In this document: piece by piece, positions 9,034 to 33,711 of the stretch
Layout of the letters: every line of letters begins with the position of its first letter
Numbering within the stretch: the first letter of the stretch is position 1
Origin: a virus
Lineage: Duplodnaviria; Caudoviricetes
Length of the DNA: 34,250 nucleotides
IMG/VR virus record: IMGVR_UViG_3300032285_003710
Location: 1-34,250 of that record
Strand: one strand, 5' to 3'
Translations under genes and position numbers: made by a program
Notes under the pieces: model-generated
Databases searched by the model: none
Seen by the model: only the letters and a program-made list of their open reading frames with translations
What the model was told of the DNA's origin: nothing

Positions 9034-9037
9034 GACT

Positions 9038-16047: not shown

Positions 16048-16075
16048 CGGAGGGAGCTTTTCTTGGGCCGATTTT
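16048..16075 (-). promoter_or_regulatory. sigma54-type promoter P4
   Basis: AAAATCGGCCCAAGAAAAGCTCCCTCCG: GG-N10-GC; near-copy of the site at 20073-20100; fills the whole intergenic gap. Confidence 0.65.
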
Positions 16076-17069
16076 AAGCGAGGTCTCTCATGCCGAGTGG
16101 ATTGTCTTTTGAATACTTACCCCAGTTCTTTCCAGCTTGGGCCTCAGACTTCATCGTGAAGTTCACACCGTCTCGTCCGGTGAGCGAAATGGCGAGGCAT
16201 TCTTGCATGAGCTTCGCCGTGTCAGTGACAAGCCCATCTGGAACCAGCGCCAGAAAAGAGTCATGTTTATTGTTAATCGCCGGTAGTGTTTTGAGTGGCC
16301 GCTCTTTGTTGAATCGGTTAACAGCAATGTGTGTGATGCAGCCCACGGTGGACTGAGGAACCCATGAGATGCCTTCCCTGATATAAGAGTCAGTAATAGT
16401 ACGCTCGAACCGGCGTGGATATCCAAACAGATTACGGAGTTGACGGTTAGCTCTAATTTGAAATTCAATTTCATCTTGCCATTCTATGATTTCGGGGAAT
16501 AGGGACGCGAAGAATCCAAGAAAGACTTTGCATTCTTGGAGACTTAGAGTCAAAGTGCCATGACTCTGTTTCAATGTCTGCAACTGAAAGGTCCGCTCAC
16601 GCATCCTGTAGGATGAAGCGTGGCAGACCATCTTGCCGATCTTGTATTCTTTGTCGGAGGATTTGATTGCTTTGTCGAGGGGTTTCCAATCGGGGTCTTT
16701 CTTTAGATCAGACGGGCTGAGGCTTTTCCAATAAGATGGCGACTTGCCCGCGAGAGGCCATATGTCTTGCATCTGCTCGCAGAAGATGTGGAGCGCGATG
16801 AAGGTATGAGGCTTGATCCCGACGTTGAAGAGTTCCCTATAACGGCCGGGGCGCGTGAGATTGGCGACAATAAGAGCCTCAGCGCCGCTCTGGTCGCATT
16901 GGACGAATGTGTGATTCGGCGGGGCGATGTAGATATCAAGAGCTTCCTTGTCTGGATTCTGGAGATTGGCGCCGTAGGTTCCAAGGAACTGCCCAGAGGC
17001 GAGGCGAAAGCTTCCTGTCCCGGCGACCTTGAGAGAGGTCAGGCAGTGGATGTGTGGTTGTTGGGGCAT
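16074..17069 (-). CDS. polA: family A DNA polymerase, C-terminal polymerase half
   Basis: GTGSFRLAS...NLQN; motif A DQSGAE; motif B KMVCHASSY; motif C KHDS. Likely start is ATG 17069. Confidence 0.9.
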   Translation of the reverse strand: MPQQPHIHCLTSLKVAGTGSFRLASGQFLGTYGANLQNPDKEALDIYIAPPNHTFVQCDQSGAEALIVANLTRPGRYRELFNVGIKPHTFIALHIFCEQMQDIWPLAGKSPSYWKSLSPSDLKKDPDWKPLDKAIKSSDKEYKIGKMVCHASSYRMRERTFQLQTLKQSHGTLTLSLQECKVFLGFFASLFPEIIEWQDEIEFQIRANRQLRNLFGYPRRFERTITDSYIREGISWVPQSTVGCITHIAVNRFNKERPLKTLPAINNKHDSFLALVPDGLVTDTAKLMQECLAISLTGRDGVNFTMKSEAQAGKNWGKYSKDNPLGMRDLA

Positions 17070-17073
17070 AAGA

Positions 17074-17922
17074 TTAAACGTCCTCACGCCATCCTACGAA
17101 CGAGGCATTGAACGGGCGGCCATCGTCGGTGAGGTTGAGATATTTGATAGTGGCTTTCTTTCGGAAGTCATAGTTTAGTTGAATATACTCTTCCCTTTCC
17201 TCGTCAGTGAATCCGGTGCCGACTTCGAAGCGCACGCCCTTCGCAGTGATAAACTCAAGCGCACCGAGTTTGCCTTTGCACTTACCTTCGTCAGAGACCA
17301 CGCGACCAATGCACAAGAACTCTGCGTCGAGAAACGCCTTGCGCTTTTGAAGATTCATCGTCGAGCGTTCCTTATCGCCCTGCGGCATATACGATCCGAA
17401 GACGCTCTTGAGCATTTGGCCTTCGAATTGTTGCTTGAGATATTCTTCGTAACACTCATCGAGTTCGATGCGGGTCTTGCAAATAGACCACGGGATCATT
17501 TCTACGCCAACGCCAGTAGATTCCTTAATGATCTTATCAAGCAAGAGCATTCTCGTAAGAGCATTATACTTTGGCTCTACGATATCGAACGCATAGAAAC
17601 TAATATGCTTTGCGTCTTCACCGGGCAGAATGCGGTTCACGCCCACGGCGGCATTGATCTTCTGGAGGCTCATGCCGTGGCAGTATAGCTCGCCGTCGAT
17701 AATATAGTCGTTAAGCGGCGGCGGAAAGATACTTTGCAAAACGGCATCATTCCACCTCTTCCCATCGCGTGAATAAAAACCAGAGCCGGGAATGTACATG
17801 CACCTCAGGCCGTTGAGCTTGGGCATCGAAACGACGTGGCCGAACTTTGATGGGTCATAAATCCCAGCGCGCATAAAGGATGCGGCGATTTGCGGGTCTT
17901 TTTCTTTTGTATCTTTTTTCAT
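17074..17922 (-). CDS. lig: ATP-dependent DNA ligase
   Basis: Motifs PKLNG, IDGELY, FYAFD, EGQMLK, QKRK and an OB-fold VGTGFTD. Likely start is ATG 17922. Confidence 0.9.
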   Translation of the reverse strand: MKKDTKEKDPQIAASFMRAGIYDPSKFGHVVSMPKLNGLRCMYIPGSGFYSRDGKRWNDAVLQSIFPPPLNDYIIDGELYCHGMSLQKINAAVGVNRILPGEDAKHISFYAFDIVEPKYNALTRMLLLDKIIKESTGVGVEMIPWSICKTRIELDECYEEYLKQQFEGQMLKSVFGSYMPQGDKERSTMNLQKRKAFLDAEFLCIGRVVSDEGKCKGKLGALEFITAKGVRFEVGTGFTDEEREEYIQLNYDFRKKATIKYLNLTDDGRPFNASFVGWREDV

Positions 17923-17924
17923 AT

Positions 17925-19355
17925 TTAATATTCCCAAATCCACTGTTGAAATCCTAACATACCTTTCAGCTTAACCATACGACGCATCTCGAAGATTACG
18001 TCGATGGCGACGTTCTTCGGATGCTTGAGTTTGATTTTATAGAGAGCATCCCCAGCGACACTCGGGGCGCCTTTGTCTGTGGTCTTCTCGGCTTTGTAGC
18101 GCATCTGAGTGTGAAGATAATTCACTACTTGATCCGGGCTGCCGGGATTGAGATCGAAGCCCACTAGGATTTTTAAGACCCTTGAGAGTTGCTTATATCT
18201 TTCTTCACAGCGTCGGACAATATATTGCCGCTTGACGGGATCGAAGTGCATTCCGTGCAGTGACATGAAGGCGTAGTCTGCGAGGGATCGACTAGCTTGA
18301 TCGACCGAATCTTGAAGTCCGCGATCGTCTCGGATGACTTCAAGCTGACCGAGGTAAATCTCTCGGAGGACAATAACGTCTTTAATGTTGTAAGCGCGGA
18401 GCTGCTCAAATTGTGCTCGATTGCGAGGATCAAAGTTCCCTGCTTCATCTTTGTGGAACGGTCTGTTAGAAAAAATAGTTGCTTGATGGGCCAGAGACTT
18501 CTCAGCCTCCGGAAAGATTCGATGGCCCGCGACCATGGTGTCATAGATATCTGTGCCAAATGGGATTTTGTAGAAGGCGGCGAGAAAGCAGAGATCGAAG
18601 AGGGCGTTGTGGATTACCACTCTCCGCTTTTTCATCTCTCTTACTAATCGCGCAAAGAAAACCACACCGACGTTAAGATTGCCGCCCCAATCGTACACAG
18701 GAACAGAATAAACAGGACTCTCTCCGCACGCGATGGCGAGGCAGGTGAGGGTGTTGGTCTTGGGGTGAGTCTCGATGTCGAAGAAGATTGGTCCGTCGTG
18801 GTTGAACACACGACAGGCTTCGTCGGCTCTTTGACAAGAGACGGTTTGGGGTTCAGGTTGAACTTTTTCGGGGTCATATGTTAGTAGTTTCTTGATGTCT
18901 TGTGCAAACCAAAAGCTGTAGTTGGATCTTTTAGTGGGACTTGTGCTTTTACCATCATCCTTATCGAGGATATCTTCTCCTTCGCCTTCGCCTTCAAGAG
19001 AGTCTTCGACGGCCCAAGCGTCCACACAGTCTTGTGGCCAATAGGTTACGATGTATTGTGTCTTTGTAGGTGAGGTATATACTACACCGCGAAAAGCGTC
19101 TAGGGTTTTTCCTTTAGCTGCTGGTAGATAATCAAGGCTTTTAGCTCCGGCGAAGATAATCTTTGTGATGCCGCTTGGTTTGTTTGCGCCTTTGAAGAAA
19201 TCGTCGGCGAAGGTGACGAAGACTTGATCTGAAGAATCAAGATCAATGGCGTGAGCAGCAAGAACAGAACGAACGAAATCACCAGCAGGGCCAAGAAGTA
19301 TTCCGTTGTTTTCTTTATCAAAGCGCGAGGGTCCATGCAGAACGAGGGCTATCAT
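17925..19355 (-). CDS. polA: family A DNA polymerase, N-terminal half (degenerate UDG-like domain + 3'-5' exonuclease + thumb)
   Basis: LLGPAG (UDG family 4-like); ExoI FDIET, ExoII HNALFD, ExoIII YNIKD; thumb GMHFD, NPGSPDQV, RRMVKLKG. Confidence 0.85.
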   Translation of the reverse strand: MIALVLHGPSRFDKENNGILLGPAGDFVRSVLAAHAIDLDSSDQVFVTFADDFFKGANKPSGITKIIFAGAKSLDYLPAAKGKTLDAFRGVVYTSPTKTQYIVTYWPQDCVDAWAVEDSLEGEGEGEDILDKDDGKSTSPTKRSNYSFWFAQDIKKLLTYDPEKVQPEPQTVSCQRADEACRVFNHDGPIFFDIETHPKTNTLTCLAIACGESPVYSVPVYDWGGNLNVGVVFFARLVREMKKRRVVIHNALFDLCFLAAFYKIPFGTDIYDTMVAGHRIFPEAEKSLAHQATIFSNRPFHKDEAGNFDPRNRAQFEQLRAYNIKDVIVLREIYLGQLEVIRDDRGLQDSVDQASRSLADYAFMSLHGMHFDPVKRQYIVRRCEERYKQLSRVLKILVGFDLNPGSPDQVVNYLHTQMRYKAEKTTDKGAPSVAGDALYKIKLKHPKNVAIDVIFEMRRMVKLKGMLGFQQWIWEY

Positions 19356-19370
19356 TGTTTGGGTTAATTA

Positions 19371-19406
19371 AAGAGAAAAGAAAAGGCAGACTATTTCCGG
19401 TCTGCC
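19371..19406 (-). terminator. terminator-like hairpin
   Basis: GGCAGAC/GTCTGCC stem followed by TTTTCTTTTCTC on the - strand. Confidence 0.7.
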
Positions 19407-19432
19407 AGCGGTGCGATGGGGATATGTCTGAG

Positions 19433-19473
19433 GAAAGAAACCTCTTAGAAAGTCTCGCAATCTTCCTAAGAGG
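19433..19473 (-). terminator. terminator-like hairpin after the SSB gene
   Basis: CCTCTTAGGAAG/CTTTCTAAGAGG stem (one G-U) followed by TTTCTTT. Confidence 0.65.
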
Positions 19474-19512
19474 CGCGTGTCTCTGTGATAGCAACCACTC
19501 TATCTCTGAGAC

Positions 19513-20031
19513 TTAGAAGTTATCGGCCAGCGGCGAGGCAGCGCCCTTGACTTGAGAGAAGTCAAACTGGGTGTTGTAGCGTTTGATGATGGCCTCGCCG
19601 TTCTCGTCGCGCTTGGCGAACTTGAGATCGCGGGAGTTCGACGGGTCGTCGGTGACATACTCAGGCTGCGACTGAACGAGCATGTTGAAAGCCTGACCTT
19701 GTAGCGACGAAAGAGCCTCAGCCACGTCCACGTCGGAGTAGTCGTCGGGCAATCCGTCATACAAGCCGACGGTCTGGAGCGGCGTGGCCAGCAGTTCAAG
19801 CGCGGAGTCAACTCCGTTCTTGTTCTCCAGCATGATGTACATGTTGCCCTTCGAGCCGAGCGTCTTGTAGGTCACGCCAGCGGCCGCGGCAGTCTCGGGC
19901 GCAATGATCTCGCACTCACAGACAACCATCTTGAAACCCTTCGCGCTCTGGCGAGTCTCGGTCTTGTGGACGAGAACCTTATAGACGTTCGCGGGGATGA
20001 ATCCGATCTTGACTTCAGTACCTTTTTTCAT
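19513..20031 (-). CDS. DUF669-like single-stranded DNA-binding protein
   Basis: IPANVYKVLV...ETRQSAKGFKMV pattern; directly downstream of the Sak4-like ATPase. Start is ATG 20031. Confidence 0.6.
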   Translation of the reverse strand: MKKGTEVKIGFIPANVYKVLVHKTETRQSAKGFKMVVCECEIIAPETAAAAGVTYKTLGSKGNMYIMLENKNGVDSALELLATPLQTVGLYDGLPDDYSDVDVAEALSSLQGQAFNMLVQSQPEYVTDDPSNSRDLKFAKRDENGEAIIKRYNTQFDFSQVKGAASPLADNF

Positions 20032-20072
20032 TTTATGTTTTGTTTTGTTTTGTTTTACTAGCACCGACAAAT

Positions 20073-20100
20073 GGGAGGGAGCTTTCTGTGGGCCATTTTT
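20073..20100 (-). promoter_or_regulatory. sigma54-type promoter P3
   Basis: AAAAATGGCCCACAGAAAGCTCCCTCCC: TGGC...GC with 10-nt spacing, intergenic. Confidence 0.7.
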
Positions 20101-20801
20101 TACGGCTTCGAGAGTTCGCTTGCGATTTTGTTAAGAGCCTTCACAACACAATTCTCCATGGGATTAGGCAAGCCCCAGAAGATCGGAGTCTTCGCGGTCG
20201 TGACGCCATCGGTCTGCGTGGCGAAGAAGTATTGAATGGTGTCAGATCCTTTCTCTTTCTTTGCATACACGGACCACACAGCGAGACACTCAGACTCGAT
20301 GCCTTTGTTTGCCCACTCTTTACCTTGGACATACAAGCGGCGTCGAGTGGTCATGCTGCCGTCGAGGCCTTGGATTGGGACGATCTCTTCGAGACCGGTG
20401 ATGATAACGGTTTTATCGAGAGACTTGAGATTCGTACACAAAGTCTGGATGCCGTCGTTGTAGTTCTTCCAGATGTCGAATCCCTTGTACATCATTTCAC
20501 ACTTGACCTGAAGCTGATCAATCGCAGCGGTGATTGAGTCGATGACGACGAGATCTTTCGTTGTGTCTTTCTTTACCTTATTCAACTCAAGAGTGAGCTT
20601 ATCATAGCTGTCGATGGGGACAACGAGCTTCTCGTCGCGCACACGAAACGGCATACCCTTTCGTTCGGCGTCGAAGATAACGGTGCGCGCGGGATCTACG
20701 TTGCGGAAGGACGTAGACTTGCCCGCGCCACTCGGGCCAACGAGTGCGATGAGGGTCTTGGGCCATTTTGGATTTTGTTTTTCTACAGGGGATGTTTCCA
20801 T
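20100..20801 (-). CDS. AAA_24 / Sak4-like ATPase (single-strand annealing)
   Basis: GPSGAGKST, FDAERKG, VVIDSIT; flanked by a nuclease and an SSB. Confidence 0.75.
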   Translation of the reverse strand: METSPVEKQNPKWPKTLIALVGPSGAGKSTSFRNVDPARTVIFDAERKGMPFRVRDEKLVVPIDSYDKLTLELNKVKKDTTKDLVVIDSITAAIDQLQVKCEMMYKGFDIWKNYNDGIQTLCTNLKSLDKTVIITGLEEIVPIQGLDGSMTTRRRLYVQGKEWANKGIESECLAVWSVYAKKEKGSDTIQYFFATQTDGVTTAKTPIFWGLPNPMENCVVKALNKIASELSKP

Positions 20802-20813
20802 ATGTTTTTATTT

Positions 20814-21740
20814 TTACCAAGTCAAAGGCTCGTACTTAGTTATTGAGCACTCCGACAAAAAGAGTTCAAGCTGCACAGCGTTCTGCGCAAAGCAGATTCG
20901 CTTGAAGGGGCAGCTCGGACAGGCATTGCACGCTTTGCCGCTAGGCGGAGGAAGCTTATCGTGGGCCATTGCTTCGTTGATATGATCAGTGAAAGTCTCG
21001 ATGCGATCTTTGACTTCCGAATCAAACTCCCAGAGTTGTTCCTCCGTGAAGCTCCAATCCGGGCCGATGCGCCATGCGGGCGAAGGTAGAGAGATCTGGA
21101 CGATCAGCGTGCGTATCACCATGCGACGATACCATGCAGCGTTGGCGTAGTTGATGTCGTCTTTGAAGATCTCATACGCAAACTTCTGAAAGATGTAATA
21201 GTAATAAGAGAACTGCGTGTCGCCATCGTAGCCCGCGACGGCGTCTTTGAATGCGTACTTGCGCGTCGTCTTATAGTCTGTGATCTGAATGACGCCTTGT
21301 GGGGTTATGCTAAGGAGGTCAACAGTACCCACATACGCGAAGCCCGGGCGGTCGACGACGGGAATGTTGAAGTGAAACTCAGCCCCGCGATTGTCACCAA
21401 ACTTTAAGGGCTGCGGTAAGGATGACAGAGGCGCCGCAGTCAGAGCTTTCCTAATCTGATCTTGATCCTTGGTGGGAAGATTCTTTTCCTTCGCTTCTTT
21501 GAACGCCTCCATACAGGCTTCTTGCCACTTCTCTCCGCTCCGGTCGAATGCGACGTTCTCGGCGAACTTGTGGATAATTTTACCCACCGTCAAAGCGGTG
21601 ATGTCCTCGGCGGGTTTAAGACCGAGGAACACTGTAAAGAACCAGCGCCTCGGACAGGCTGAGATCTTTAATCCAGAAGCGTTGATGGGGATAACTGCGG
21701 GGATGCCTTCGTGAGGGAGGTCTTTGTAGGATAGTTTCAT
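20814..21740 (-). CDS. PD-(D/E)xK (Cas4/RecB-like) exonuclease
   Basis: ACPRRW, GKIIH, GTVD, TDYKT, Q..YY and C-terminal C..C.F...C. Confidence 0.85.
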   Translation of the reverse strand: MKLSYKDLPHEGIPAVIPINASGLKISACPRRWFFTVFLGLKPAEDITALTVGKIIHKFAENVAFDRSGEKWQEACMEAFKEAKEKNLPTKDQDQIRKALTAAPLSSLPQPLKFGDNRGAEFHFNIPVVDRPGFAYVGTVDLLSITPQGVIQITDYKTTRKYAFKDAVAGYDGDTQFSYYYYIFQKFAYEIFKDDINYANAAWYRRMVIRTLIVQISLPSPAWRIGPDWSFTEEQLWEFDSEVKDRIETFTDHINEAMAHDKLPPPSGKACNACPSCPFKRICFAQNAVQLELFLSECSITKYEPLTW

Positions 21741-21806
21741 TAGTAGGATGTTATATTATTGAGGAGAAAAGAGAAGGGCTTTTTAGGCTAACCCCAAGCC
21801 AAAGAC

Positions 21807-22247
21807 TTAGCTCATCTTGCTGTTCGACGCGGGCGACTCACAGTCGCACTTGGCGCGTTGGCCGAGCTTATACACGCGCTGCTCGCTCTCGTCGGCGAGA
21901 CCTTGCAGGAAGTTGAGGGTGCCGCTTGAAGATCCTTTGCAGCACGCATCGACTTCCTTCTGCACGCGGGTCTCGATTTCGAGAAAGATCTTTGGCCAGT
22001 TCTTGATATCTTCCAGATCACAGAACCATTTGGCGAGATCGGCCGCGGTGATGTTGCCGTCGGAGATCTTAGGCTCGACGCCCAAGCCGATCATCCGCTC
22101 GATCACGGCATCGTAGGCTTCTTCGTAGGTAGTATAAAGATTTCCCAGATACTTATGATCTGAAAAGAAACTCTCTCCAGTTACGGTGTTGTGTTTTTCA
22201 TGCGCGGTAAGTTGGGCCGCGCGGAACAGTGTAGCTAAATTATGCAT
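21807..22247 (-). CDS. Dps/ferritin-like protein
   Basis: H..H..VTG..FFSDH..L..LY......D.VIER...LG is the Dps ferroxidase-centre pattern. Confidence 0.75.
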   Translation of the reverse strand: MHNLATLFRAAQLTAHEKHNTVTGESFFSDHKYLGNLYTTYEEAYDAVIERMIGLGVEPKISDGNITAADLAKWFCDLEDIKNWPKIFLEIETRVQKEVDACCKGSSSGTLNFLQGLADESEQRVYKLGQRAKCDCESPASNSKMS

Positions 22248-22260
22248 GTTGTTTGTGGTT

Positions 22261-22348
22261 AAAGAAAAGAGCTACCCAGCGCGCCGTCCCAGGGGAAACC
22301 GTCAAAACCCTGCCGCAAGAACAGCTTGCGGTACGCGCTAGGTAGCTC
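22261..22348 (-). ncRNA. structured intergenic RNA (three-way junction + U tract)
   Basis: 15-bp closing stem with one U-G, enclosing CCGCAAG/CTTGCGG and CAGGG/CCCTG hairpins. Confidence 0.5.
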
Positions 22349-22352
22349 AAAG

Positions 22353-22583
22353 TTATTTCTTGAACTTGAAGTTCTGGGTTTGATTGATGATCGCCTGAAC
22401 ATCCACGCCTTTAAGGAGTGGATCGTTTAGGAGAGAAGCTAAATCCGTACCGGTTGGTCTCGTGTGCGGGAAGTGTTTGAGAAGAAACTTCTCAAGCTCT
22501 TTGTCTGTCATCTCTTCGACGGGTTTAGGTAGGCCGAGGAGGAGATCGAGTTCGTTGAGATTGGAGTTACCTGATGCGCTCAT
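22353..22583 (-). CDS. hypothetical protein
   Basis: 76 aa in the operon chain. Confidence 0.6.
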   Translation of the reverse strand: MSASGNSNLNELDLLLGLPKPVEEMTDKELEKFLLKHFPHTRPTGTDLASLLNDPLLKGVDVQAIINQTQNFKFKK

Positions 22584-22586
22584 AGA

Positions 22587-22790
22587 TCACAAAACAACAC
22601 AGCACAATTTCCTACGAATGATAGCTTTGTCCGTGGTGTTCTCTGCGGCTTTCTCCGGGCTGTCGTATAGCATGGTCGAGAACCATTGGCCCTTGAGGCT
22701 GTATTGATAGGCGTAGAAGTAATACTCTTTTGGGCGTGGAGCTTCTGGCTCGGTGGCGGTGGCAAATGTTAGACCTCGTTCTTCTTTCAT
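22587..22790 (-). CDS. hypothetical protein
   Basis: 67 aa from ATG 22790; the longer ORF call overlaps the SLT-like gene. Confidence 0.55.
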   Translation of the reverse strand: MKEERGLTFATATEPEAPRPKEYYFYAYQYSLKGQWFSTMLYDSPEKAAENTTDKAIIRRKLCCVVL

Positions 22791-22794
22791 GTTG

Positions 22795-23241
22795 TTATTG
22801 GTTGTTTCTGTATTCGCTGTAGAGATTAAAGAATCTTTCACATTTCCGTTGAGCGGGTTTGCTGAGTCGATTGAAGTCATAGTCTTTCCTTGAGAAAGCA
22901 GTAAGGCCGAGATTCCAGGCCGCGTATACATCTCTTGGATCTGGATCTCTCTTTCGCTGGGCGAGACAGAGTCTAAGTTCGAGCCAACAGAGATGGGCTT
23001 TGGCGCATCTTCGGGCCTCGGACGGAATATGTCTAGCATCCTTTTCAGAAGGGAAATGCTGGCGCCAGACTGATCGCTTGAGTTGATATCTTGAGAGTTC
23101 ACCGTGTTTGCCTTTTGCTTTGTCGTTGTCGCTGCTTTCGATTGTTGAGATCGCCCTGAGCTTAGCGTCGAAGTCTTGCTGGAGGGCGATGAGTGTAGTT
23201 TGGATTGAGGTGATTGTCAGACCTATCATAAGGATTTTCAT
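22795..23241 (-). CDS. lysozyme-like / lytic transglycosylase with hydrophobic N-terminus
   Basis: AISTIES (catalytic Glu), G..GE.S.YQ and YAAWNLG motifs. Confidence 0.65.
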   Translation of the reverse strand: MKILMIGLTITSIQTTLIALQQDFDAKLRAISTIESSDNDKAKGKHGELSRYQLKRSVWRQHFPSEKDARHIPSEARRCAKAHLCWLELRLCLAQRKRDPDPRDVYAAWNLGLTAFSRKDYDFNRLSKPAQRKCERFFNLYSEYRNNQ

Positions 23242-23648
23242 AGAGGCCAGAAGTATGGTAGGTTGTCTGGAATGTTTGGAAATTTTGGAGCGTAGTAATC
23301 CGCTTTCTTTCTTATCAGATTACTCTGATGTGTCTTGTGCAGATAAGAGCCGAGCCAATGGGGCTGGATGATGTAAGGGTAAGTGAGAAGCTCTTTCTCA
23401 AAATGCGGTAAGAGGTTATCAACATAGCCCCGAGCGCGGGCTTCTTGGCAGATCTTGATGCTATATAAGCACAACCACGCTGGATAATCTTTGACCATGC
23501 GCACAGCGGGATGACTGCGCCAGCCCTCTGACTTACCTTGGATTGTGTTGAGGATTTGATAAGACTCAACGCGCTGTTTCATAAGGCGCTGGGTGTCTAG
23601 CACGCGGGCAGACTGTTCGATGTCGGGATATGGGAGGAAGATTTGCAT
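23238..23648 (-). CDS. pyrimidine-dimer DNA glycosylase-like (DenV / MSMEG_6728 family)
   Basis: MQIFLPY...SARVLD..RL.KQRVE..QIL...GW..HPAVRM...HQSNLIRK...Y.WP. Confidence 0.85.
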   Translation of the reverse strand: MQIFLPYPDIEQSARVLDTQRLMKQRVESYQILNTIQGKSEGWRSHPAVRMVKDYPAWLCLYSIKICQEARARGYVDNLLPHFEKELLTYPYIIQPHWLGSYLHKTHQSNLIRKKADYYAPKFPNIPDNLPYFWPL

Positions 23649-23669
23649 TTTGTGGTTGTGTTTTATTTA

Positions 23670-24332: not shown

Positions 24333-24520
24333 AGGACTAAGAAGTCAAAGTTATTCTGCCAGCTATCATTCAACTGATTATAGGTATTGTTCTTGATCTT
24401 CCACGTTCGCGGGTCGCGGGTTGCTTTGGTATGGCGGCACCGGATACGAACGTCGATGGTTTGAAGTGCGGAGTTTCGGAGGTGGTGATGGTGCGGGAGT
24501 TCGTGGAGCAGGATGGTCAT
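24329..24520 (-). CDS. hypothetical protein
   Basis: 63 aa with ATGA overlaps at both ends. Confidence 0.6.
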   Translation of the reverse strand: MTILLHELPHHHHLRNSALQTIDVRIRCRHTKATRDPRTWKIKNNTYNQLNDSWQNNFDFLVL

Positions 24521-24735
24521 ATTTTCTCCGTGAGTGATCTGATGTACCTGTTCCGCTCCTTCGGTCTGACGTTGATGAGGTATTGGATTGCCAGACAGGC
24601 ATTGACGGTTGCGGTATTTTCCCAGTTCTCCTTGTTGTCGTAGTACTCATGCCACCGTTCACTGGGTGCTACGATGACTTGGCCGGTTCGCTTGTGCTTG
24701 AAGACGAATGCGGCAGGGCCGATGGGGACGTTCAC
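24517..24735 (-). CDS. hypothetical protein
   Basis: 72 aa; GTG start preceded by AGGAGG. Confidence 0.6.
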   Translation of the reverse strand: MNVPIGPAAFVFKHKRTGQVIVAPSERWHEYYDNKENWENTATVNACLAIQYLINVRPKERNRYIRSLTEKI

Positions 24736-24971
24736 GACCTAACCTCCTGCTCACGCCACAGCAGCAGATCCGCTCGCATGGCGTCGTTCTCCTGCTCTAG
24801 TTGCTTGATGCGTTCTCGCGCTTCTTGAAGTTCCCACGCAAGACCACCAATCACATTGTCTCCAGTGACATCTCGCCACTCCTCGCCATAGCGAAGGACG
24901 CGAGTTCCACCAGTTGATACTTGGACGATAGTGTATTTACCGTCACAAATGGTTACGTTTACTCCGCTCAC
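24732..24971 (-). CDS. hypothetical protein (cassette gene)
   Basis: GTG start inside the 26-bp repeat, after AAGGAGG; C-terminal coiled coil. Confidence 0.6.
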   Translation of the reverse strand: MSGVNVTICDGKYTIVQVSTGGTRVLRYGEEWRDVTGDNVIGGLAWELQEARERIKQLEQENDAMRADLLLWREQEVRS

Positions 24972-25213
24972 GGATTGGCCTCCTTGGCTTTGTACCACTC
25001 TATAATTTTTTCGTGATAATCGGTGCTTTTGCTATGACTCAATAAGCAGTTACCAGCTTGAACCAACCGATTGATGCGCTCGTTCAGTTTCTGAATCTCG
25101 TTAGCTGCTGCATCCATCATTATTGCGCGGTTGAACCACCCCACTTCTCGAAGTGACTGAGCGTCATTTCGTAGTTGTTCTTCGAGACTCACGGCTTGGC
25201 CTCCTTGGCTTTG
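24967..25213 (-). repeat. 26-bp direct repeats at gene junctions (24967-24992, 25188-25213)
   Basis: CAAAGCCAAGGAGGCCAA[G/T]CCGTGAG, 25/26 identical. Confidence 0.9.
24968..25192 (-). CDS. hypothetical protein (cassette gene)
   Basis: 74 aa from GTG 25192; bounded by the two repeats. Confidence 0.6.
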   Translation of the reverse strand: MSLEEQLRNDAQSLREVGWFNRAIMMDAAANEIQKLNERINRLVQAGNCLLSHSKSTDYHEKIIEWYKAKEANP

Positions 25214-25214
25214 G

Positions 25215-26060
25215 TCATAGTTCATTCTCCTTATCATATTCCGGCAATTCAATCTCTCCAAGTTCTCTCTTCAATAGAAGATTACGCAACGCCCGAACAT
25301 TCCCAAACGAGAATGTCTCGTCGCCGAAGTGTTCTCTTTCTCCCAACGGGGTCCAGTTTTCCTCGGCGATGATAGCACTGGCGACACAGCGTATCTCTTG
25401 CACACCCCGCTGTTGTAAAGAGAATGTCTTCAAGCCGAGTTCGTTGATGCGGAAGTATAGATCCTCTCTAAAGCTTCCCTCTTTAACCATCTTCAACAAG
25501 TCTCTATTCGTTGCGAAGATGAAGCGACATTGAATCGGAACGGGATCAACAGCTCCGACGGGCAAGACGGTTTTATCCTGCAGCACACGGAGCAACTTAG
25601 CTTGATGCGCCAGCGGCAACTCGCCTATCTCGTCGAGGAAAGCAGTGCCCTTGCCGACTGCTCGGAGAAAGCCAACGTCGCCTCTTGATTTGGCACCGGT
25701 AAAGGCACCGGGCATGTAGCCAAATAGCTCGCTTTGGAATAGAGTATCCGTAAGACCGGCCATGTTCATAGCTTTTAGAGGCTTCCGTTTGTGGGCTAAG
25801 ATGCGAGCGACTAACTCCTTGCCGGTGCCCGACGGGCCTTCGATCAAGACGTTGTATCTCTGCAAGCTCTCTTCGGCGTAGGTTATTGCGGCCGTGAGCA
25901 TCCTCTTGGTGAGAGGATCTTGTGTGGCATAGCACGAAGCTATTGACTGAATAGAGTTCTCCTTCAGCGCGTCGCCTGTGATCTTCAACACATCCTTGCG
26001 GATGTTATCGAGGAAGCTGTCGGCCGCGGCGGTGTTAAGGACGTTTGCGTGGATGTTCAT
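25215..26060 (-). CDS. sigma54-dependent transcriptional activator (bEBP), AAA+ domain only
   Basis: GPSGTGKE, SELFG..PGAFTGA, FLDEIGELP, Q.KLLRVLQ, ATNRDL, FREDLYFR, GNVRAL. No receiver domain and no C-terminal HTH. Confidence 0.97.
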   Translation of the reverse strand: MNIHANVLNTAAADSFLDNIRKDVLKITGDALKENSIQSIASCYATQDPLTKRMLTAAITYAEESLQRYNVLIEGPSGTGKELVARILAHKRKPLKAMNMAGLTDTLFQSELFGYMPGAFTGAKSRGDVGFLRAVGKGTAFLDEIGELPLAHQAKLLRVLQDKTVLPVGAVDPVPIQCRFIFATNRDLLKMVKEGSFREDLYFRINELGLKTFSLQQRGVQEIRCVASAIIAEENWTPLGEREHFGDETFSFGNVRALRNLLLKRELGEIELPEYDKENEL

Positions 26061-26233
26061 TTCTTTTTATTCTTTCTCTTTGAATATATCGAAGAACCGG
26101 GATCTCTTAGCTTATACTTCATGATCGCCTTACGCGTAGAGGCCATCTCTTCTCGCGTAAGATACTCTTCGTCGAGCGAGCCGAGTTTGTATTTGCTGAC
26201 GTACTGATCACCGCGTTGATGGAATTTGCTCAT
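26057..26233 (-). CDS. small basic protein (58 aa, absent from the ORF track)
   Basis: MSKFHQRGDQ...SKRKNKKK; its stop overlaps the bEBP start (ATGA). Confidence 0.6.
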   Translation of the reverse strand: MSKFHQRGDQYVSKYKLGSLDEEYLTREEMASTRKAIMKYKLRDPGSSIYSKRKNKKK

Positions 26234-26528
26234 ACTTTGATAGTTTAGTTTTTAGCCCTATGATCTCCCTCTCCAAGACAGAGATCCTCGCGGCCATTTG
26301 ATTCTTCAAATTAGTCAGATCAAAGATCATTCTGTCATAGTGTTCTTTATGATAAGGCATCTTGCTGATGTTTGAGATAGTGCCCCGTGAGACTCCGAAG
26401 TACTCGCCCGCTTGAACGCGCGTTAGATGCGGGTTAGCATGGATGTGCTCGCGGATGTGCATCTTCTCCTCGAAGGTGAGGAAGTAGTTCTTGCGTGTGA
26501 TATGTGTTGACTTTCTTGAAGGGTTCAT
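26208..26528 (-). CDS. helix-turn-helix protein with C-terminal coiled coil
   Basis: LTRVQAGEYFGVSRGTISNI HTH followed by heptads (LTNLKNQMAARISVLEREIIGLKTKL). Confidence 0.75.
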   Translation of the reverse strand: MNPSRKSTHITRKNYFLTFEEKMHIREHIHANPHLTRVQAGEYFGVSRGTISNISKMPYHKEHYDRMIFDLTNLKNQMAARISVLEREIIGLKTKLSKYEQIPSTR

Positions 26529-26550
26529 ATATGATTTAGATATGGTTAAG

Positions 26551-28722
26551 TTAACTGACAGACTCTACAGGTTCATCGTCATCATCTTCTTCTTCCTCAA
26601 CCTCAACGACGCCGGAGGATTCAGACGCCGTGAGATCTTCGGCGGTAAGTCTCACGACCGCCGCCTTATCCTTGAGTGCCTTCTCAAGTTCTCCCGCCAG
26701 ATCGACGTTCGATGACCCGATTGCGTCTACGGATTTCAATTTTCTTGCAAGCTTAGGAGCCATGTGATCACTGAGGATTGTGCCTTCGGGAACATAGATC
26801 TCTTGCAGTGTGTCGGTGAGGGTTGTGATACGGACACAGCGACCGAGAGCTTGAGCAAACTCCTCTGCCCAATAGGTCATCGTCGATGCGACTTTGCGTG
26901 GGCGTGTATGGGCATAGCGATGATCCAGTGATATGCCTGTGCCTCCGCTTGAGAGAGTATAGATACAGAACTCCGTCTCGCCATTGAGGAACGCTTGCAC
27001 GTTCTCATGTCGTTCCTTTTGATTCTGATTGTGAAGCTTCATCTCTCTTAATTTTTCATTCCTCGCGGCGAATGCATCCTTTGTCATCTCTCGGAAGATA
27101 CGCTCGGAGGTGTACTTGATGCCCTTGTGGAAAGCGCGGAATTCTTCCTTGGTTATCCCAATGTCATCCGCTTTAGGCTTTCTTGCTTCATGAGGATTAT
27201 CAAGAATCCACATGCCCATCTTCGCAGCGATCTCTGCGGCGCGGGTTTCTGGGAGAAGCTCCTCGGGCTTGATCTCTTTGTTGCCACCCCAGATTAGGGA
27301 TATTTTGTCTTTGGTTAGACCCTTAGACTTAAAGTATTCACTATCACAGAGCTTCATCACAAGCTCCTTGAGAGTCTCTGTGAAGCGAATTGCTATGACT
27401 GGCGCATAGCCCTGTCGATGGGCCTCGATCGCATCAGCGACCCAAGTGTCTACGGTGGCAAGCTCGGCCGCTCGGGCCATGACCATGAAGGCGACCATGA
27501 CTTGACCTTGTGGATCTATTGAGCGGCCTGTTCTTTCAATCGCCTCAAGATAATTCTTCATCGCATTCTTGAGCATGTTTTGATTGGCGGGATCAGTGAT
27601 CTCAAAGAGCTTGACTTTGTTGAGAGCCTTCACCTTTTGAGGATCGCCCGGCGGCTTGACTAGTCTATCTCCTAAAGCACCAGCCCAGCGTTCGAGTGCG
27701 GCTGCATTCGCCGAGCGAGGATCTGCGCCGAGAGTTATAGTGCGTGCGAACTCTGGGAATGTTTCTCGCGTGAGAGGTCTTGCTCCATAAGGAAGTCTCA
27801 TAGCGAGAGTCATAAACATCGTATCCCACACAGTCACAGCGGGCGTGGCTGAGGTGAAGACCCACTTAATAGATGGGAATTGAAGGAAAGCTTCGAGGTA
27901 TTTGGTGCGTTTAGACTTCTCTTTCTTAATCTCCTGACACTCGTCGAGGATGATGAGCTTTGGAGCGGCCTGTTCAGGCAGGTTAAAGCGGATCACGTTC
28001 GTCGCTTGACCGAAGATCTCCGTTGTCTCAGTCTTAAAGAAGTTCTTGTTCTTCGTAGAGAAGACTTCGTTGTATGACCACACATCCACGGCGAGGCCCA
28101 CGCTTTCAAGACCCAGTTTCTTGAGGGTGTCTCGGAAGTCAAGGACGACAGACTTCTTGGTGATGATTAGGATCGGCGGAAAGAGACCGAGAAAGTTACA
28201 GAACTTTTGAGGGTCATGTTTTTGTAGCCACAGCGCGAGACCTGCGGCAATCCAACTCTTACCTTTGCCCGTTCCTAAGGGAACGAGGGCGCCGTTGAGG
28301 TTGTCTTTGTACAGTACATCGAGCAAGGCCGCGATAGCTTTCTTCTGCTGGGGCTTGAAATCTAATCCACCCGGGAGTTTGATATCTATGGTGCTGTAGG
28401 TTCTTTTCTCCCTCAAGGCTGCTTCTTCTGCTAAGCGGAGAGCTTCTCGTTGTTGCCTCAAGGGCGCTTGATTAACCCAGCCTTGAAGAAAGCCGAGCAG
28501 TGTAGCGTAATCGAGCTTTACGGTGGGGATTGTCGTGAGATTTAATTCACGCTGCAAGAAGTCCCACTCATAAGGCTCTTTGCGATAGAGATCGGTGAGC
28601 TTCTTCGCTTGCGCGCGGGCTGTGGTGAGTGCTGTTTGTTGAAGACGATCTTCCTTGGAGGTATATTGTTCAGTTTGAACAGGTGCCTTACGGACACCCG
28701 CAGGAGTAGAGAATATATTCAT
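26551..28722 (-). CDS. superfamily 2 helicase/ATPase (SNF2 / strawberry-notch-like)
   Basis: GTGKGKS, ILDEC, SATP, GGTGISL, QALGRCVR; acidic C-terminal tail. Confidence 0.85.
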   Translation of the reverse strand: MNIFSTPAGVRKAPVQTEQYTSKEDRLQQTALTTARAQAKKLTDLYRKEPYEWDFLQRELNLTTIPTVKLDYATLLGFLQGWVNQAPLRQQREALRLAEEAALREKRTYSTIDIKLPGGLDFKPQQKKAIAALLDVLYKDNLNGALVPLGTGKGKSWIAAGLALWLQKHDPQKFCNFLGLFPPILIITKKSVVLDFRDTLKKLGLESVGLAVDVWSYNEVFSTKNKNFFKTETTEIFGQATNVIRFNLPEQAAPKLIILDECQEIKKEKSKRTKYLEAFLQFPSIKWVFTSATPAVTVWDTMFMTLAMRLPYGARPLTRETFPEFARTITLGADPRSANAAALERWAGALGDRLVKPPGDPQKVKALNKVKLFEITDPANQNMLKNAMKNYLEAIERTGRSIDPQGQVMVAFMVMARAAELATVDTWVADAIEAHRQGYAPVIAIRFTETLKELVMKLCDSEYFKSKGLTKDKISLIWGGNKEIKPEELLPETRAAEIAAKMGMWILDNPHEARKPKADDIGITKEEFRAFHKGIKYTSERIFREMTKDAFAARNEKLREMKLHNQNQKERHENVQAFLNGETEFCIYTLSSGGTGISLDHRYAHTRPRKVASTMTYWAEEFAQALGRCVRITTLTDTLQEIYVPEGTILSDHMAPKLARKLKSVDAIGSSNVDLAGELEKALKDKAAVVRLTAEDLTASESSGVVEVEEEEDDDDEPVESVS

Positions 28723-28726
28723 AATC

Positions 28727-29032
28727 TTATAGGTCCATCAACTTCGCGATCACTTCCTCAGCATTCTTGAATCCATAGGCTTGTGGTGTGCGTGAGATCA
28801 AAGAGATGTACTCGCCGAAGACGATACTCTCTGCGGTTGGTTTGTCAAGTAGGGAGAATGAGCGATTGATGGCGTCACGTTTGTTGAGAAGGGGCGTGAG
28901 TTTCTTTTGAAGAGAGATCATCTCATCCTCCAGCCGTTGGCGTAACATTACATTCTTGGTAGTAGCCTTGTCCATCTTGGCTTTGAGGCGCGCTGCTTCC
29001 TTCTGACATTTCTTCTGTAGGTTTTTGTTCAT
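28727..29032 (-). CDS. hypothetical coiled-coil protein
   Basis: 101 aa in the operon chain. Confidence 0.55.
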   Translation of the reverse strand: MNKNLQKKCQKEAARLKAKMDKATTKNVMLRQRLEDEMISLQKKLTPLLNKRDAINRSFSLLDKPTAESIVFGEYISLISRTPQAYGFKNAEEVIAKLMDL

Positions 29033-29636
29033 TTTCTTTTTGATTTTCTTGGTTAATTTTTTCTAAGAGACCGCGAGTGTCTACGATACGGAGGACTTCT
29101 TCGATGGGAAAGTAACAGTTGATATTGTTGAACGCTCCTTTGAGAGCGTCGTTAAGTTGTCTGCTCTTATTCAGATAGACCTCTTCGCCCTGCGATGTGA
29201 TCGCGGCGGCAACTTCAAAGGCTTTCTGTTTGGTGAAGAGCTTAGCTTTGCTTAACGCATCTGCGATCATTTCGATCCGCAGCTCTTCCGCTTTTTTGTG
29301 GAGGAAGGATATGTCAGAGGCAAGGTGGTTTGCTCGTAGTGTTCTTCGTCTTTCGTCGCTGAGATTCCATTCCGTTGAGTCCCAGATGACACTATAGCTA
29401 AGTCCATCTTCGTCGATTCTCTGTATATGGATATGTTCACCCGCGCAGTGAGCTTTAACCCAGTCCGCTGTTTCATTTGTAGCAACAATCGCATGGGCAA
29501 GATTATTTCCTGCAGTTCTGCGGATAAAGTGGCCTCGCTCTGTATCGACATGACAAGAGCAGGCTGGAAAGAGCAATCCCCAGAGGGATTCGCTTGTTGG
29601 CGTTGAGATTTCGTCGTTTTCATTTTGAAGAGGCAT
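28923..29636 (-). CDS. hypothetical protein
   Basis: 237 aa; start overlaps the rpoN stop. Confidence 0.6.
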   Translation of the reverse strand: MPLQNENDEISTPTSESLWGLLFPACSCHVDTERGHFIRRTAGNNLAHAIVATNETADWVKAHCAGEHIHIQRIDEDGLSYSVIWDSTEWNLSDERRRTLRANHLASDISFLHKKAEELRIEMIADALSKAKLFTKQKAFEVAAAITSQGEEVYLNKSRQLNDALKGAFNNINCYFPIEEVLRIVDTRGLLEKINQENQKENEQKPTEEMSEGSSAPQSQDGQGYYQECNVTPTAGG

Positions 29637-30909
29637 AGATTTTCCTTAAGTGCGAGGGTTGAATGCCTAGTTCGGCTCTGTACTTTGCGATCGTGCGGCG
29701 AGCGATGGTGTTCTTTAAGAGGACAACGATGTCTTCGTCGCTTAGTGGGCGAGATTTATCTTCTTTAGATATAATCTCTGCGATCTGATTTTTAATGCTT
29801 AGGTTTGACTGCATGGTGTTTTCATTGTGGTTGATGATAGCTGAGGTGAAGAAGAATCTTAATTCATAGGTCCCTTTTGGGGTGCTTATGTATTTGTTAT
29901 GCACTGCCCGCGAGACGGTTGTCTCATGGATCTCACACACGAGAGCGATCTGCGCCATGATAAGAGGCTTGAGATCTTTGATATTCCCCGAGCGGAAGAA
30001 GTCTGTTTGATAATCTACAATAGCCTTCGTCACGTTGAAGAGTGTAGATTGACGCTGCATGATCGAGCGGATCAAGAACTTCCCTTGCTTCACACGCTCT
30101 CGAATGTATTCTCTGTCTTGCGGCGAGAGCTTATCAAGGTAATTCAGATATCCTTGATTGATCTTGTAGACAGGCAGACGCTCAGCGGGGATCGTGATGT
30201 TGAGATCTTTGTCAAGAAAGATCTCTGCGTCTTTGGGTGTGTGCGTTGAATGGGTGAACTCTGAAGCGGGATTGTAGTTTAGCTTTGCTAGAGACTTGTA
30301 CAGATTCTCTATCGTTGTGAAGGTCTCGTTGTATTTTTTACTTAAGAGAGGAATCTGACGGCGCGTGAATAAGTCTTCGTCTTGTTGGAGGATCTTGTAC
30401 GCGAGAGAGTCTTCTGGGAGTTGAAGACAAAGACAGTCTGCTAATCCCAAAGCGCCTAGTCCGCGTGGTTCTAGTGTGCGGATAAAACGCAAAGCATCTC
30501 TTTGACTTGTGCTGAGTGCATCCAAGTCTCCCGTATAGAATCCGCGCTCGTCGAGCAGATGAATGATTGACAGATCGTGTTGTGCTATAAGAAGTTCTCT
30601 CTCAAGGAACTCTTCAAGAGTCTCCTCTCTCGCGGGGTTATTCTCTAGTGGATACTCCTCTCGGGCGGGCAGAGAATACGAACTAGTCCACTGCATGTCT
30701 TGTGGAAGTTCTGCTTTGTCATTGCGAAAGAGGATTTCTTCTTCAGGCATCTCTCTATCGAGGAGTTCTACGCAAGGATTATCCTGCGTGAAAGACTCCA
30801 TCAAGGTATGGAGTTCACAGAGAGGAGCCTGTAGTAGCGCGAGACTTTGCTGGAGTTGAGGACTCAGGATAAGACTCTGAGTCTGCTGTACGTTAAGTGA
30901 AAACTTCAT
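29620..30909 (-). CDS. rpoN: RNA polymerase sigma-54 factor
   Basis: Region I QQTQSLILSPQLQQSLALLQ..EL...NP; core-binding LDERGF, LEPRGLGA..L.DCL.LQL; HTH LKPL...IA...IHETTVSRAV.NKY..TP.G..ELRFFF; ED...PLSD; RpoN box ARRTIAKYR. Confidence 0.98.
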   Translation of the reverse strand: MKFSLNVQQTQSLILSPQLQQSLALLQAPLCELHTLMESFTQDNPCVELLDREMPEEEILFRNDKAELPQDMQWTSSYSLPAREEYPLENNPAREETLEEFLERELLIAQHDLSIIHLLDERGFYTGDLDALSTSQRDALRFIRTLEPRGLGALGLADCLCLQLPEDSLAYKILQQDEDLFTRRQIPLLSKKYNETFTTIENLYKSLAKLNYNPASEFTHSTHTPKDAEIFLDKDLNITIPAERLPVYKINQGYLNYLDKLSPQDREYIRERVKQGKFLIRSIMQRQSTLFNVTKAIVDYQTDFFRSGNIKDLKPLIMAQIALVCEIHETTVSRAVHNKYISTPKGTYELRFFFTSAIINHNENTMQSNLSIKNQIAEIISKEDKSRPLSDEDIVVLLKNTIARRTIAKYRAELGIQPSHLRKIYASSK

Positions 30910-30935
30910 TTGTCTGGTGGTTGATTCAGACTATT

Positions 30936-30963
30936 GCGATAGAGCCTAAAGTATGCCAAGTTT
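30936..30963 (-). promoter_or_regulatory. sigma54-type promoter P2 (upstream of rpoN)
   Basis: AAACTTGGCATACTTTAGGCTCTATCGC: TTGGCA and GG-N10-GC; 21/21 identical to P1 outside the 7-nt spacer. Confidence 0.8.
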
Positions 30964-30983
30964 TGGCATCTGCGAGATGCCAA
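30963..30983. promoter_or_regulatory. palindrome of two extra TTGGCAT boxes abutting P2
   Basis: TTGGCATCT-GCG-AGATGCCAA. Confidence 0.55.
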
Positions 30984-30998
30984 TACTTGAAACACCTC

Positions 30999-31035
30999 AA
31001 AGAAAAGCCTCTGTGAGATTGCTCCCACAGAGGCT
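30999..31035 (-). terminator. Rho-independent terminator
   Basis: AGCCTCTGTG/CACAGAGGCT stem followed by TTTCTTT on the - strand. Confidence 0.85.
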
Positions 31036-31084
31036 CCTTGTGATTTAGTTGTATTGCAGATTACTTCGTGAGGAAGTAAAACTA

Positions 31085-31732
31085 TTAGACCTTGGCGCTC
31101 TTCTTGGCTTCGCGCTTGGCCTTCGCGGCCGAGAGTTCGTTGGCCTTGGCCAGAAGCTGCGCCAGAGAGGCTATCAGGTTGGACTGCTTCGCGATCGCAG
31201 CGTCCTTATCAGAGACGCCCAAAGAGCGGGCAGTGTCTTCGGTCCACTCGCCAGCCAGAGCGAACACAATCGAGCCGATCTCAGAGCGGATGCTCTCGAT
31301 CTTCTTGAGGACAGACTTCTCAGTCTCACGATCGGCGCTGACGCCATAGATAAAGGCGGCGAAATAGTCGGGCGTATTTCCTTTTGACAAGTAAGCCTCG
31401 CTAGCGTCTTCGGCGATATCCAGCAAGTGCTCGGCGACGAGATCGCTCAAGGCGTTCGACACGCGCTTGGTCTCGGTCACAGAGCCATCTTCGTTCTTAA
31501 CCTTCGTGACGTGCTCAGTGGCGATCTCAGCGAGAGCTTCGCCGCGCTTGATGTAGTATTGCAAGTCGCTCACAGCCAGAACGGGCTTCTGGAAGGAGAC
31601 AGTGCGCTCGGCGCTCTTCGCAGTCTTACGGACGTGACGCTCGCTGGTGGTGAACAGAGGATTGCCATCGGCGTCGCTTTGGAACACGCTACCGGCAAAG
31701 GAGGCGACGAGTTCGAGGTTCTTAGTGCTCAT
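31085..31732 (-). CDS. hypothetical protein, monocistronic, with K/A-rich C-terminus
   Basis: 215 aa with its own promoter (P1) and terminator. Confidence 0.8.
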   Translation of the reverse strand: MSTKNLELVASFAGSVFQSDADGNPLFTTSERHVRKTAKSAERTVSFQKPVLAVSDLQYYIKRGEALAEIATEHVTKVKNEDGSVTETKRVSNALSDLVAEHLLDIAEDASEAYLSKGNTPDYFAAFIYGVSADRETEKSVLKKIESIRSEIGSIVFALAGEWTEDTARSLGVSDKDAAIAKQSNLIASLAQLLAKANELSAAKAKREAKKSAKV

Positions 31733-31829
31733 TTTATTTTGTATTTCTAACTTTGTTGGTTGTTTGTTTTGGGATGTTTACGGTCGCGCGACCTTAGACA
31801 TTTCGCTTGTCACCAACGGGACTTGCAAA

Positions 31830-31857
31830 GCGATAGAGCTTCTTGAATGCCAAGTTT
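31830..31857 (-). promoter_or_regulatory. sigma54-type promoter P1
   Basis: AAACTTGGCATTCAAGAAGCTCTATCGC; located just downstream of a terminator. Confidence 0.8.
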
Positions 31858-33689: not shown

Positions 33690-33711
33690 TTGCATTACGA
33701 AAGCCAATTTG

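Follow-up and report, generated by a model that had tools for sequence, protein, structure and literature searches.

The stretch of DNA analysed here (the window) is a virus record of 34,250 nucleotides (nt), IMGVR_UViG_3300032285_003710 of IMG/VR (Caudoviricetes); its - strand carries a replication block, and large genes occupy the + strand. Four short elements on the - strand, P1 to P4, have the form of the -24/-12 promoters that are read by the alternative sigma factor sigma-54 (RpoN), and the same strand encodes an RpoN protein and a minimal AAA+ activator of the sigma-54 type; coordinates are given in Table 1. On the basis of their sequence and its conservation in related phages, we consider it very likely that P1 to P4 are promoters of the sigma-54 -24/-12 type.

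Four sigma-54-type elements in the window

All four sequences were found where a sequence-only reading of this DNA had placed them, with the predicted transcription start sites (+1) listed in Table 1 if the C of the GC is taken as -12; their TGGC..GCT cores span the intervals given there. The consensus proposed in that reading, AAA-N3-GGC-N7-ARGCTC-NN-TC, is matched in the window by exactly P1 to P4 (four sites against 0.03 expected), and none of 100 shuffles reached four. As this consensus was derived from P1 to P4 themselves, the count was repeated without the term for positions -15/-14. Intergenic matches to YGGC-N9-GCW then numbered eight at the N10 spacing, none at N9 and three at N11. 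The eight comprise P1 to P4, a weak fifth candidate (33691-33706), and matches at 7703 and, on the + strand, at 14507 and 32348. The fifth candidate is overlapped by a hairpin, and the gene downstream of it has no homologue in the relatives' loci compared. The + strand site at 7703-7718 was rejected as a promoter, as it lies within a conserved reading frame and is found at that position in only six of 21 blocks, and a P3-like site inside an exonuclease gene (20953-20968) was rejected because it tracks the coded peptide and its GG is lost in one relative (G004).

Conservation of the elements in related phages

For the conservation test, upstream blocks were anchored on the downstream gene and aligned blind to the motif. 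The element was present in every distinct block (13 of 13 for P1, 15 of 15 for P2, 40 of 40 for P3 and 37 of 37 for P4), and across relatives the flanks (by indels) and parts of the spacer vary around it; one P2 block carries a 20-nt tandem duplication in which one copy is still intact. These blocks yield 71 distinct orthologous sites, which come from related phages and are not independent events. The exact GG-N10-GC spacing reported for the four sites of the window is kept at 71 of 71, the base after the GC (-11) is T at all of them, and both the non-coding placement and the orientation into a gene are conserved, with the leading AAA of P3 and P4 overlapping the stop codons of the upstream genes. 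The bacterial TT at -15/-14 is indeed replaced, as the sequence-only reading had it for P1 to P4: all 71 sites have AA, AG or GA there, and none has T at either position. Its consensus stood in part: the core GGC-N7-ARGCT fits 67 of the 71 sites, the other four reading GAGCT, but the full form fits only 18. The two sequence classes that had been proposed, there as possible temporal classes, are likewise conserved in sequence, -22 being A in 21 of 21 P1/P2 sites and C in 46 of 50 P3/P4 sites.

Terminator-like hairpins stand immediately upstream of P1 and P2, and another one ends the gene behind P3. Complete relatives have three extra conserved slots that the window lacks, before terminase-like, capsid and tail-like genes. 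The terminase slot precedes the first gene of an opposite-strand cluster in seven of seven variants, the next gene having a weak terminase match (E 0.006); the capsid slot was found in four of four, the capsid being called by the Atlas look-alike PF13252 (score 0.97); and the tail slot, before a tail-fibre-like gene, is represented by two distinct variants. At P4, the first ATG after the GC follows at 11-12 nt in 11 of 23 variants (12 nt in the window), at 17-19 nt in 10 and at 27-28 nt in two; it follows at 14-15 nt in six of seven terminase-slot variants and at 13-14 nt in both tail-slot variants. An ATG 12 nt past the GC predicts a leaderless mRNA at P4. Start codons at or near the predicted +1 indirectly support, we infer, that these start sites are real and that the mRNAs have no leader or almost none.

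A palindrome of two back-to-back -24 boxes at P2 recurs in 15 of 15 rpoN upstream blocks of clade 1, the rpoN-bearing phage clade from which the P1 to P4 orthologues come, frequently accompanied by a third box 9 nt farther upstream; the opposite-strand -24 box of the window copy has no -12 at N10. It was rejected as an rpoN-specific operator, 47 of its 63 viral matches lying away from rpoN and 16 near it; unrelated phages commonly have it too.

The phage RpoN and its activator

The phage does encode an RpoN, as had been claimed: its product of 429 amino acids (aa) matches PF00309, PF04963 and PF04552, all above cut-off. The protein is 75-93% identical across 13 viral loci, and its predicted model (mean pLDDT 75.5, pTM 0.49) matches sigma-54 structures in Foldseek (best E 5.5e-27, at a TM of only about 0.4). 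An Atlas search with it returned generic sigma-54 clusters only. Among the GenBank phages searched there were 15 RpoN matches, none covering 80% of the query, with a best-place identity of 26-37%, and no cultured phage with a close RpoN relative was found. A 43%-identical RpoN (P0123) groups with clade 1, and no locus was found for it in the viral collection.

We compared 116 clade-1 RpoNs with 116 Verrucomicrobia-like proteins, with residues numbered after an enterobacterial-type RpoN from L110. The phage RpoN retains L26, R336, H377, E378, T380, R383, R455 and R456, residues whose functional roles are described in PMC10083551, PMC5505868 and PMC12096077. In sigma-54, the extra-long helix and helix-turn-helix (ELH-HTH) reads the -12 element and the RpoN domain reads -24 (PMC10083551, PMC5505868), and the T or A after the GC is the base captured in a pocket between region I and the ELH (PMC10083551). 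The recognition helix (377-385, HETTVSRAV) is found in at least 98% of both sets, which also have in common L26, S332, R336, T339, R455, R456, T457, K460, Y461 and R462. All 116 clade-1 RpoNs have a 3-residue deletion at E. coli 450-452, before the RpoN box, and the fixed or near-fixed changes in clade 1 are K331R, H334M, VGV to CEI (374-376), G387N, V458I and L468Q.

The activator (281 aa) matches PF00158 (E 2e-49) and retains Walker A, GAFTGA and Walker B. PF00158 is the sole domain type detected in the 281 aa, with no regulatory, signal or HTH domain, and by this content the protein fits the type Ic bacterial enhancer-binding proteins, which have the AAA+ core with GAFTGA and Walker motifs and lack a signal domain, an HTH domain or both. 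It is 91-98% identical over 27 viral loci, and wherever a record had a PF00158 match (15 records), this protein was the sole one. In the GenBank phage set, MT121960.1 has a match to it.

Between 30909 and 25215 all genes share a strand and either overlap or are set apart by short gaps, and no - strand terminator was flagged in this interval; P2 is therefore the predicted promoter of rpoN and of the activator gene alike. The 106-aa protein with a weak HTH match encoded just before the activator is a candidate regulator or partner. A sigma-70-like site at 28848-28821 was considered as a route to the activator gene. It was found in 12 of 17 clade-1 blocks, but its sequence follows the peptide encoded there, and matches of the sigma-70 type were no more frequent than chance would give (21 against 18.4). 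Sigma-70 region 2 was found in none of five records, in a search that detected its positive controls; a T7-type RNA polymerase was found in none of five either, in a search without a responding positive control.

Related phages without rpoN

Relatives that have the activator but no rpoN were found through alignments of the polymerase and the activator. Of 24 records, nine encode RpoN and 15 the activator; for the six that are at least 90% complete, the numbers are five and six. A further 22 records, 11 of them at least 90% complete, gave no RpoN match in a search without an internal positive control; a hidden Markov model (HMM) built from the same RpoN alignment as that search recovered all eight known copies among 15 records. 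In G042, a complete genome of 49.8 kb with terminal repeats, the HMM found no RpoN, and no sigma-70 region 2 was found.

The promoter slots of G042 are nevertheless occupied. Its P1 slot reads TAGCT; its P2 slot reads AAGCTC and lies directly before a homologue of the gene that follows rpoN in the window; its P3 slot reads TAGCT with the same TCCTCCCATTT tract; and its capsid slot reads TAGCA. AAGCT or TAGCT also occurs in the rpoN-less G047, G043, G044, G064 and G065, and G047 already has the TCCTCC tract that lies downstream in P3/P4-type sites. An unrooted tree of activator and polymerase (32 rows, grouping taken from the rows listed) places a group of G042, G047 and L263 (support 99) outside clade 1 (split 100) and joins the rpoN-bearing G037 to the rpoN-less G043, G044 and G064 (100).

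Using a pattern blind to -15/-14, we found A at -14 in 12 of 16 sites of clade 1, five of six of its rpoN-less sisters G042/G047, three of three of G037 and four of six of G037's rpoN-less sisters, as against five of 25 in other near relatives and two of 29 in far relatives; the controls, taken at two wrong spacings, gave 5, 2, 0, 2, 1 and 2 for the same six groups in order. As A at -14 is enriched in the rpoN-less sisters too, it follows the branch and not the presence of rpoN. Furthermore, the terminase slot of rpoN-bearing clade-1 phages has TT, GT, AT or AA at -15/-14, with T at -14 in four of seven variants, two of which are canonical TTGCT. The proposal of a phage-specific, orthogonal -12 element finds no support in view of these AGC-type elements in G042/G047, the mixed terminase slot and the shared recognition helix; the -12 variant is probably not a private code of the phage RpoN.

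A far wider set of phage records (L281-L330) has the minimal activator and near-canonical TTGCT, CTGCT or ATGCT sites, with rpoN in none of the 22 tested.

Origin of rpoN and probable host

The best cellular matches to the phage RpoN include Limisphaera, and in a 54-row FastTree tree the phage RpoNs nest among Limisphaera/Verrucomicrobiota proteins (0.99). This nesting points to the donor and probably to the host; these protein comparisons make a Limisphaera-like host within the Verrucomicrobiota probable.

G037 represents a second phage lineage with rpoN (contig C1, 2730-4196; L147). Its RpoN is longer and more host-like (488 aa), is encoded between Sak4-like and single-strand DNA-binding (SSB)-like genes, and shares about 45-51% identity with a group that NCBI labels as Verrucomicrobiota; no sigma-54 site was detected directly upstream of the gene. 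One candidate reading is that rpoN was acquired twice, in clade 1 and in G037. The position of rpoN differs between the two and each has rpoN-less sisters, which favours this reading, but the RpoN tree joins them (0.94, on long branches).

Four Verrucomicrobia-like bacterial rpoN genes (L031, L034, L036 and L049) have an opposite-strand sigma-54-type site just upstream, with TC, TC, TT and CT, respectively, at -15/-14.

Interpretation

We favour the reading, which we hold to be probable, that P1 to P4 belong to a family-wide sigma-54 programme of these phages, likely fired by the phage's minimal activator and likely readable by both the host sigma-54 and the phage copy. By this reading, the phage likely expresses a good part of its genes through the unusual sigma-54 route of bacteria. 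That the host factor is able to read P1 to P4 seems likely, with good confidence. Sigma-54 holoenzyme would dock as closed complexes at about seven promoters, and the activator, lacking an HTH or sensor, would open them from solution without an enhancer, by analogy with the type Ic activators CtcC, FlgR and FleT. P2 would feed back on rpoN and the activator gene, a predicted positive-feedback loop towards which the gene order inclines us, though less firmly. The first round could be begun by read-through, by a host activator or by an unconfirmed sigma-70 site. Phage rpoN would mainly raise the supply of sigma-54 and bring no new recognition code, leaving the purine at -15, the C at -22 in P3/P4 and the RpoN-box deletion as room for specialisation.

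A fully orthogonal code, in which the ARGC -12 element is read by the phage RpoN only and this RpoN ignores TTGC promoters of the host, would account for the absence of T at -15 and -14 from all 71 orthologues, given that the compiled bacterial consensus is YTGGCA/TTGCT (PMC11997794). We consider it very improbable nonetheless: AAGCTC occurs in the complete, rpoN-less G042 and AAGCT in the partial, rpoN-less records G047 and G065, canonical TTGCT occurs in two of seven variants of the clade-1 terminase slot, the recognition helix is identical to that of the Verrucomicrobia-like group, and P2 has to be active at a time when no phage RpoN has yet been made. About as little weight falls on the idea that the sites are operators or docking sites for another protein, for example the small HTH protein at 26208-26528, or leftovers of duplication. 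The long flanks shared by P1 with P2 and by P3 with P4 could be duplicates, a palindrome overlaps P2 and the weak HTH match is in the same operon, but the fixed N10 spacing, the single orientation into genes, the placement after terminator-like hairpins and the ATG at the predicted +1 speak against it, as does the family-wide co-occurrence of the sites with the GAFTGA activator, far relatives having near-canonical TTGCT, CTGCT or ATGCT sites.

More room is left for a partial specialisation, which we regard as unlikely but worth considering. Here the host sigma-54 would fire P1/P2 (with the canonical -24 box TGGCAY) first, and phage RpoN made from P2, with its shortened RpoN-box turn, would then prefer P3/P4 (GGCCC/AAGCT, with C at -22 and AA at -15/-14) in an early-to-middle switch onto the replication genes. 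The split at -22 between the two classes fits this scheme, as do the TGGCAY found at the P3 slot of G042, G047, G043, G044, G064, L263 and G037, the 450-452 deletion in 116 of 116 clade-1 RpoNs with the near-fixed changes at 331, 374-376, 387 and 468, and the precedent of Cereibacter sphaeroides, whose RpoN paralogues discriminate by one promoter position and the cognate activator (PMC11999139). The scheme rests, however, on one evolutionary event; C at -22 is also found at the P3 slot of the rpoN-less G060 (92% complete) and is absent from four of the 50 clade-1 P3/P4 sites; neither the recognition helix nor the RpoN-box arginines have changed; the rpoN-bearing G037 retains TGGCAC; and the late slots mix all types.

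The family-wide programme that we favour needs to be interpreted cautiously in its turn, as several observations weigh against it. The purine at -15 (71 of 71), the C at -22 in P3/P4 and the RpoN-box deletion are clade-1 traits mostly without counterpart in the sister groups, and sites within one clade are non-independent. The enrichment of A at -14 coincides with the only two branches that include rpoN-bearing members, so that this base may date from a time when their ancestors still had a phage RpoN, and the rpoN-less phages may have other hosts. In 25 Verrucomicrobia-like loci only eight sigma-54 sites were found (TC twice, TT twice, and CC, AA, CT and AT once each at -15/-14), against nine control matches over two wrong spacings. 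Finally, one 4.4-kb contig of the clade is in a genome titled Phycisphaerales, not Verrucomicrobiota, which has its own RpoN; in the phylum of this genome, the best matches to a Pedosphaerales-like query are about 31-43% identical, and mis-binning of the contig is possible.

Other features of the window and its relatives

In the window, the family A DNA polymerase (16074-19355, - strand) is encoded in two parts, by separate genes that flank a gene for an ATP-dependent DNA ligase, an order also found in distant relatives. The same strand encodes a ferritin/Dps-like protein (21807-22247) and a pyrimidine-dimer DNA glycosylase (23238-23648). On the + strand, a 1,751-aa open reading frame (ORF; 8972-14227) with an ART-PolyVal ADP-ribosyltransferase domain (Pfam E 1.8e-27) stands at the end of a probable virion cluster, and a 132-aa reading frame (7397-7795), apparently conserved in relatives, overlaps the end of the gene at 6246-7559.

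In G001-G005, a conserved leader of about 155 nt with apparent hairpins lies behind the capsid promoter, between scaffold-like and capsid genes (for example, L026 at about 8630-8820); similar elements occur in G042, G037 and G044, and they are possibly structured RNA. In G001 (58.6 kb), several structural genes recur at the two ends, suggesting that the assembly overlaps itself; the P1 gene of G001 is present though a simple ORF caller missed it.

Table 1. Positions of predicted promoters, genes and hairpins in the window (AID, activator-interacting domain)
Feature	Position	Strand	Remarks
Weak fifth candidate site	33691..33706	-	AT at -15/-14; ATG 12 nt past GC
Intrinsic-terminator-like hairpin with U tract	31879..31902	-	Directly upstream of P1
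P1, predicted sigma-54 promoter (-26 to -11)	31837..31852	-	Before 215-aa gene; predicted +1 about 31826
215-aa gene behind P1	31085..31732	-	No convincing match in family searches
Terminator-like hairpin	30995..31040	-	Between 215-aa gene and P2; -26.8 kcal/mol (folded 46 nt); missed by simple scan
Palindrome, two back-to-back -24 boxes	30954..30968		Overlaps P2
P2, predicted sigma-54 promoter	30943..30958	-	Heads predicted rpoN-helicase-activator operon; predicted +1 about 30932
rpoN, full sigma-54, 429 aa	29620..30909	-	AID, core-binding and DNA-binding domains
237-aa gene after rpoN	28923..29636	-	Homologue directly behind P2 slot in rpoN-less G042
Superfamily-2 helicase-like gene	26551..28722	-	Within predicted P2 operon
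106-aa protein, weak HTH match	26208..26528	-	CENP-B_N, E 0.002; just upstream of activator, predicted P2 operon
Minimal sigma-54 activator, 281 aa	25215..26060	-	AAA+ core, Walker A/B, GAFTGA
P3, predicted sigma-54 promoter	20080..20095	-	Directly after Sak4-like gene; predicted +1 about 20069
172-aa gene behind P3, probable single-strand DNA-binding protein	19513..20031	-	Weak match phrog_7778 (E 0.054), and position
Terminator-like hairpin closing P3 unit	19385..19406	-	Upstream of split DNA polymerase genes
P4, predicted sigma-54 promoter	16055..16070	-	Directly after polymerase C-terminal gene; predicted +1 about 16044
75-aa gene behind P4	15816..16043	-	Followed by primase/helicase-like DUF3987 gene (14570-15829)

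Comparison with known systems

Phages are described as using sigma-54 only rarely; the single cited case that we found, phage YuA, borrows the host factor. In a literature search on phages and sigma-54 that went by record listings and the openings of abstracts, no published description of a phage-encoded sigma-54 or of such a minimal activator was found. If the favoured reading is true, it would amount to a new phage transcription strategy, in a family of about 50 kb with an enhancer-less minimal activator, sites before replication, packaging and capsid genes, and rpoN in some branches. The RpoN/activator pair is small and could be reconstituted, which would open two questions to test: whether an AAA+ core suffices by itself to activate sigma-54 promoters from solution, and which features govern the tolerance at -15/-14 and -22. 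The rpoN-bearing and rpoN-less sisters form a natural control pair. In the less probable event that the two classes form a cascade, the phage RpoN would be a naturally re-tuned sigma-54 serving as a phage temporal switch.

With bacterial sigma-54 systems (PMC7057263, PMC10083551, PMC5505868) the phage shares GG-N10-GC, the T or A after the GC and an AAA+ activator with GAFTGA, and its RpoN is likewise full, with region I, ELH-HTH and RpoN box. It differs in that one phage genome holds the sigma factor, activator and promoters, in that -15/-14 is purine-rich and not TT, and in that no enhancer-binding domain was detected. The engineered orthogonal sigma-54 variants R456H/Y/L (PMC12096077) owe their orthogonality to changes at R456 and at the GG of -24, whereas the phage retains R455/R456 and the GG.

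The type Ic activators CtcC of Chlamydia, FlgR of Helicobacter and FleT of Cereibacter/Rhodobacter (PMC3162934, PMC11999139) have, like the phage protein, an AAA+ core without an HTH, and FleT and the phage activator both lack a signal domain as well. FleT cannot activate alone and needs FleQ (PMC11999139), whereas the phage activator has no second PF00158 protein beside it in its 15 records. RpoN1 and RpoN2 of Cereibacter sphaeroides (PMC11999139, PMC3162934) offer a parallel for a second sigma-54 in one cell, with specificity set by one promoter position and the cognate activator; the discriminating base there is -11, the position that is invariably T in P1 to P4 (71 of 71). The closest phage parallel is Pseudomonas phage YuA, a phage programme using sigma-54 (PMC5053324, bioRxiv 10.1101/2023.10.13.562163). 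YuA relies on the host factor and has one mapped sigma-54-like promoter (P015), whereas the phage described here encodes both an RpoN and an activator, with about seven conserved predicted promoter slots.

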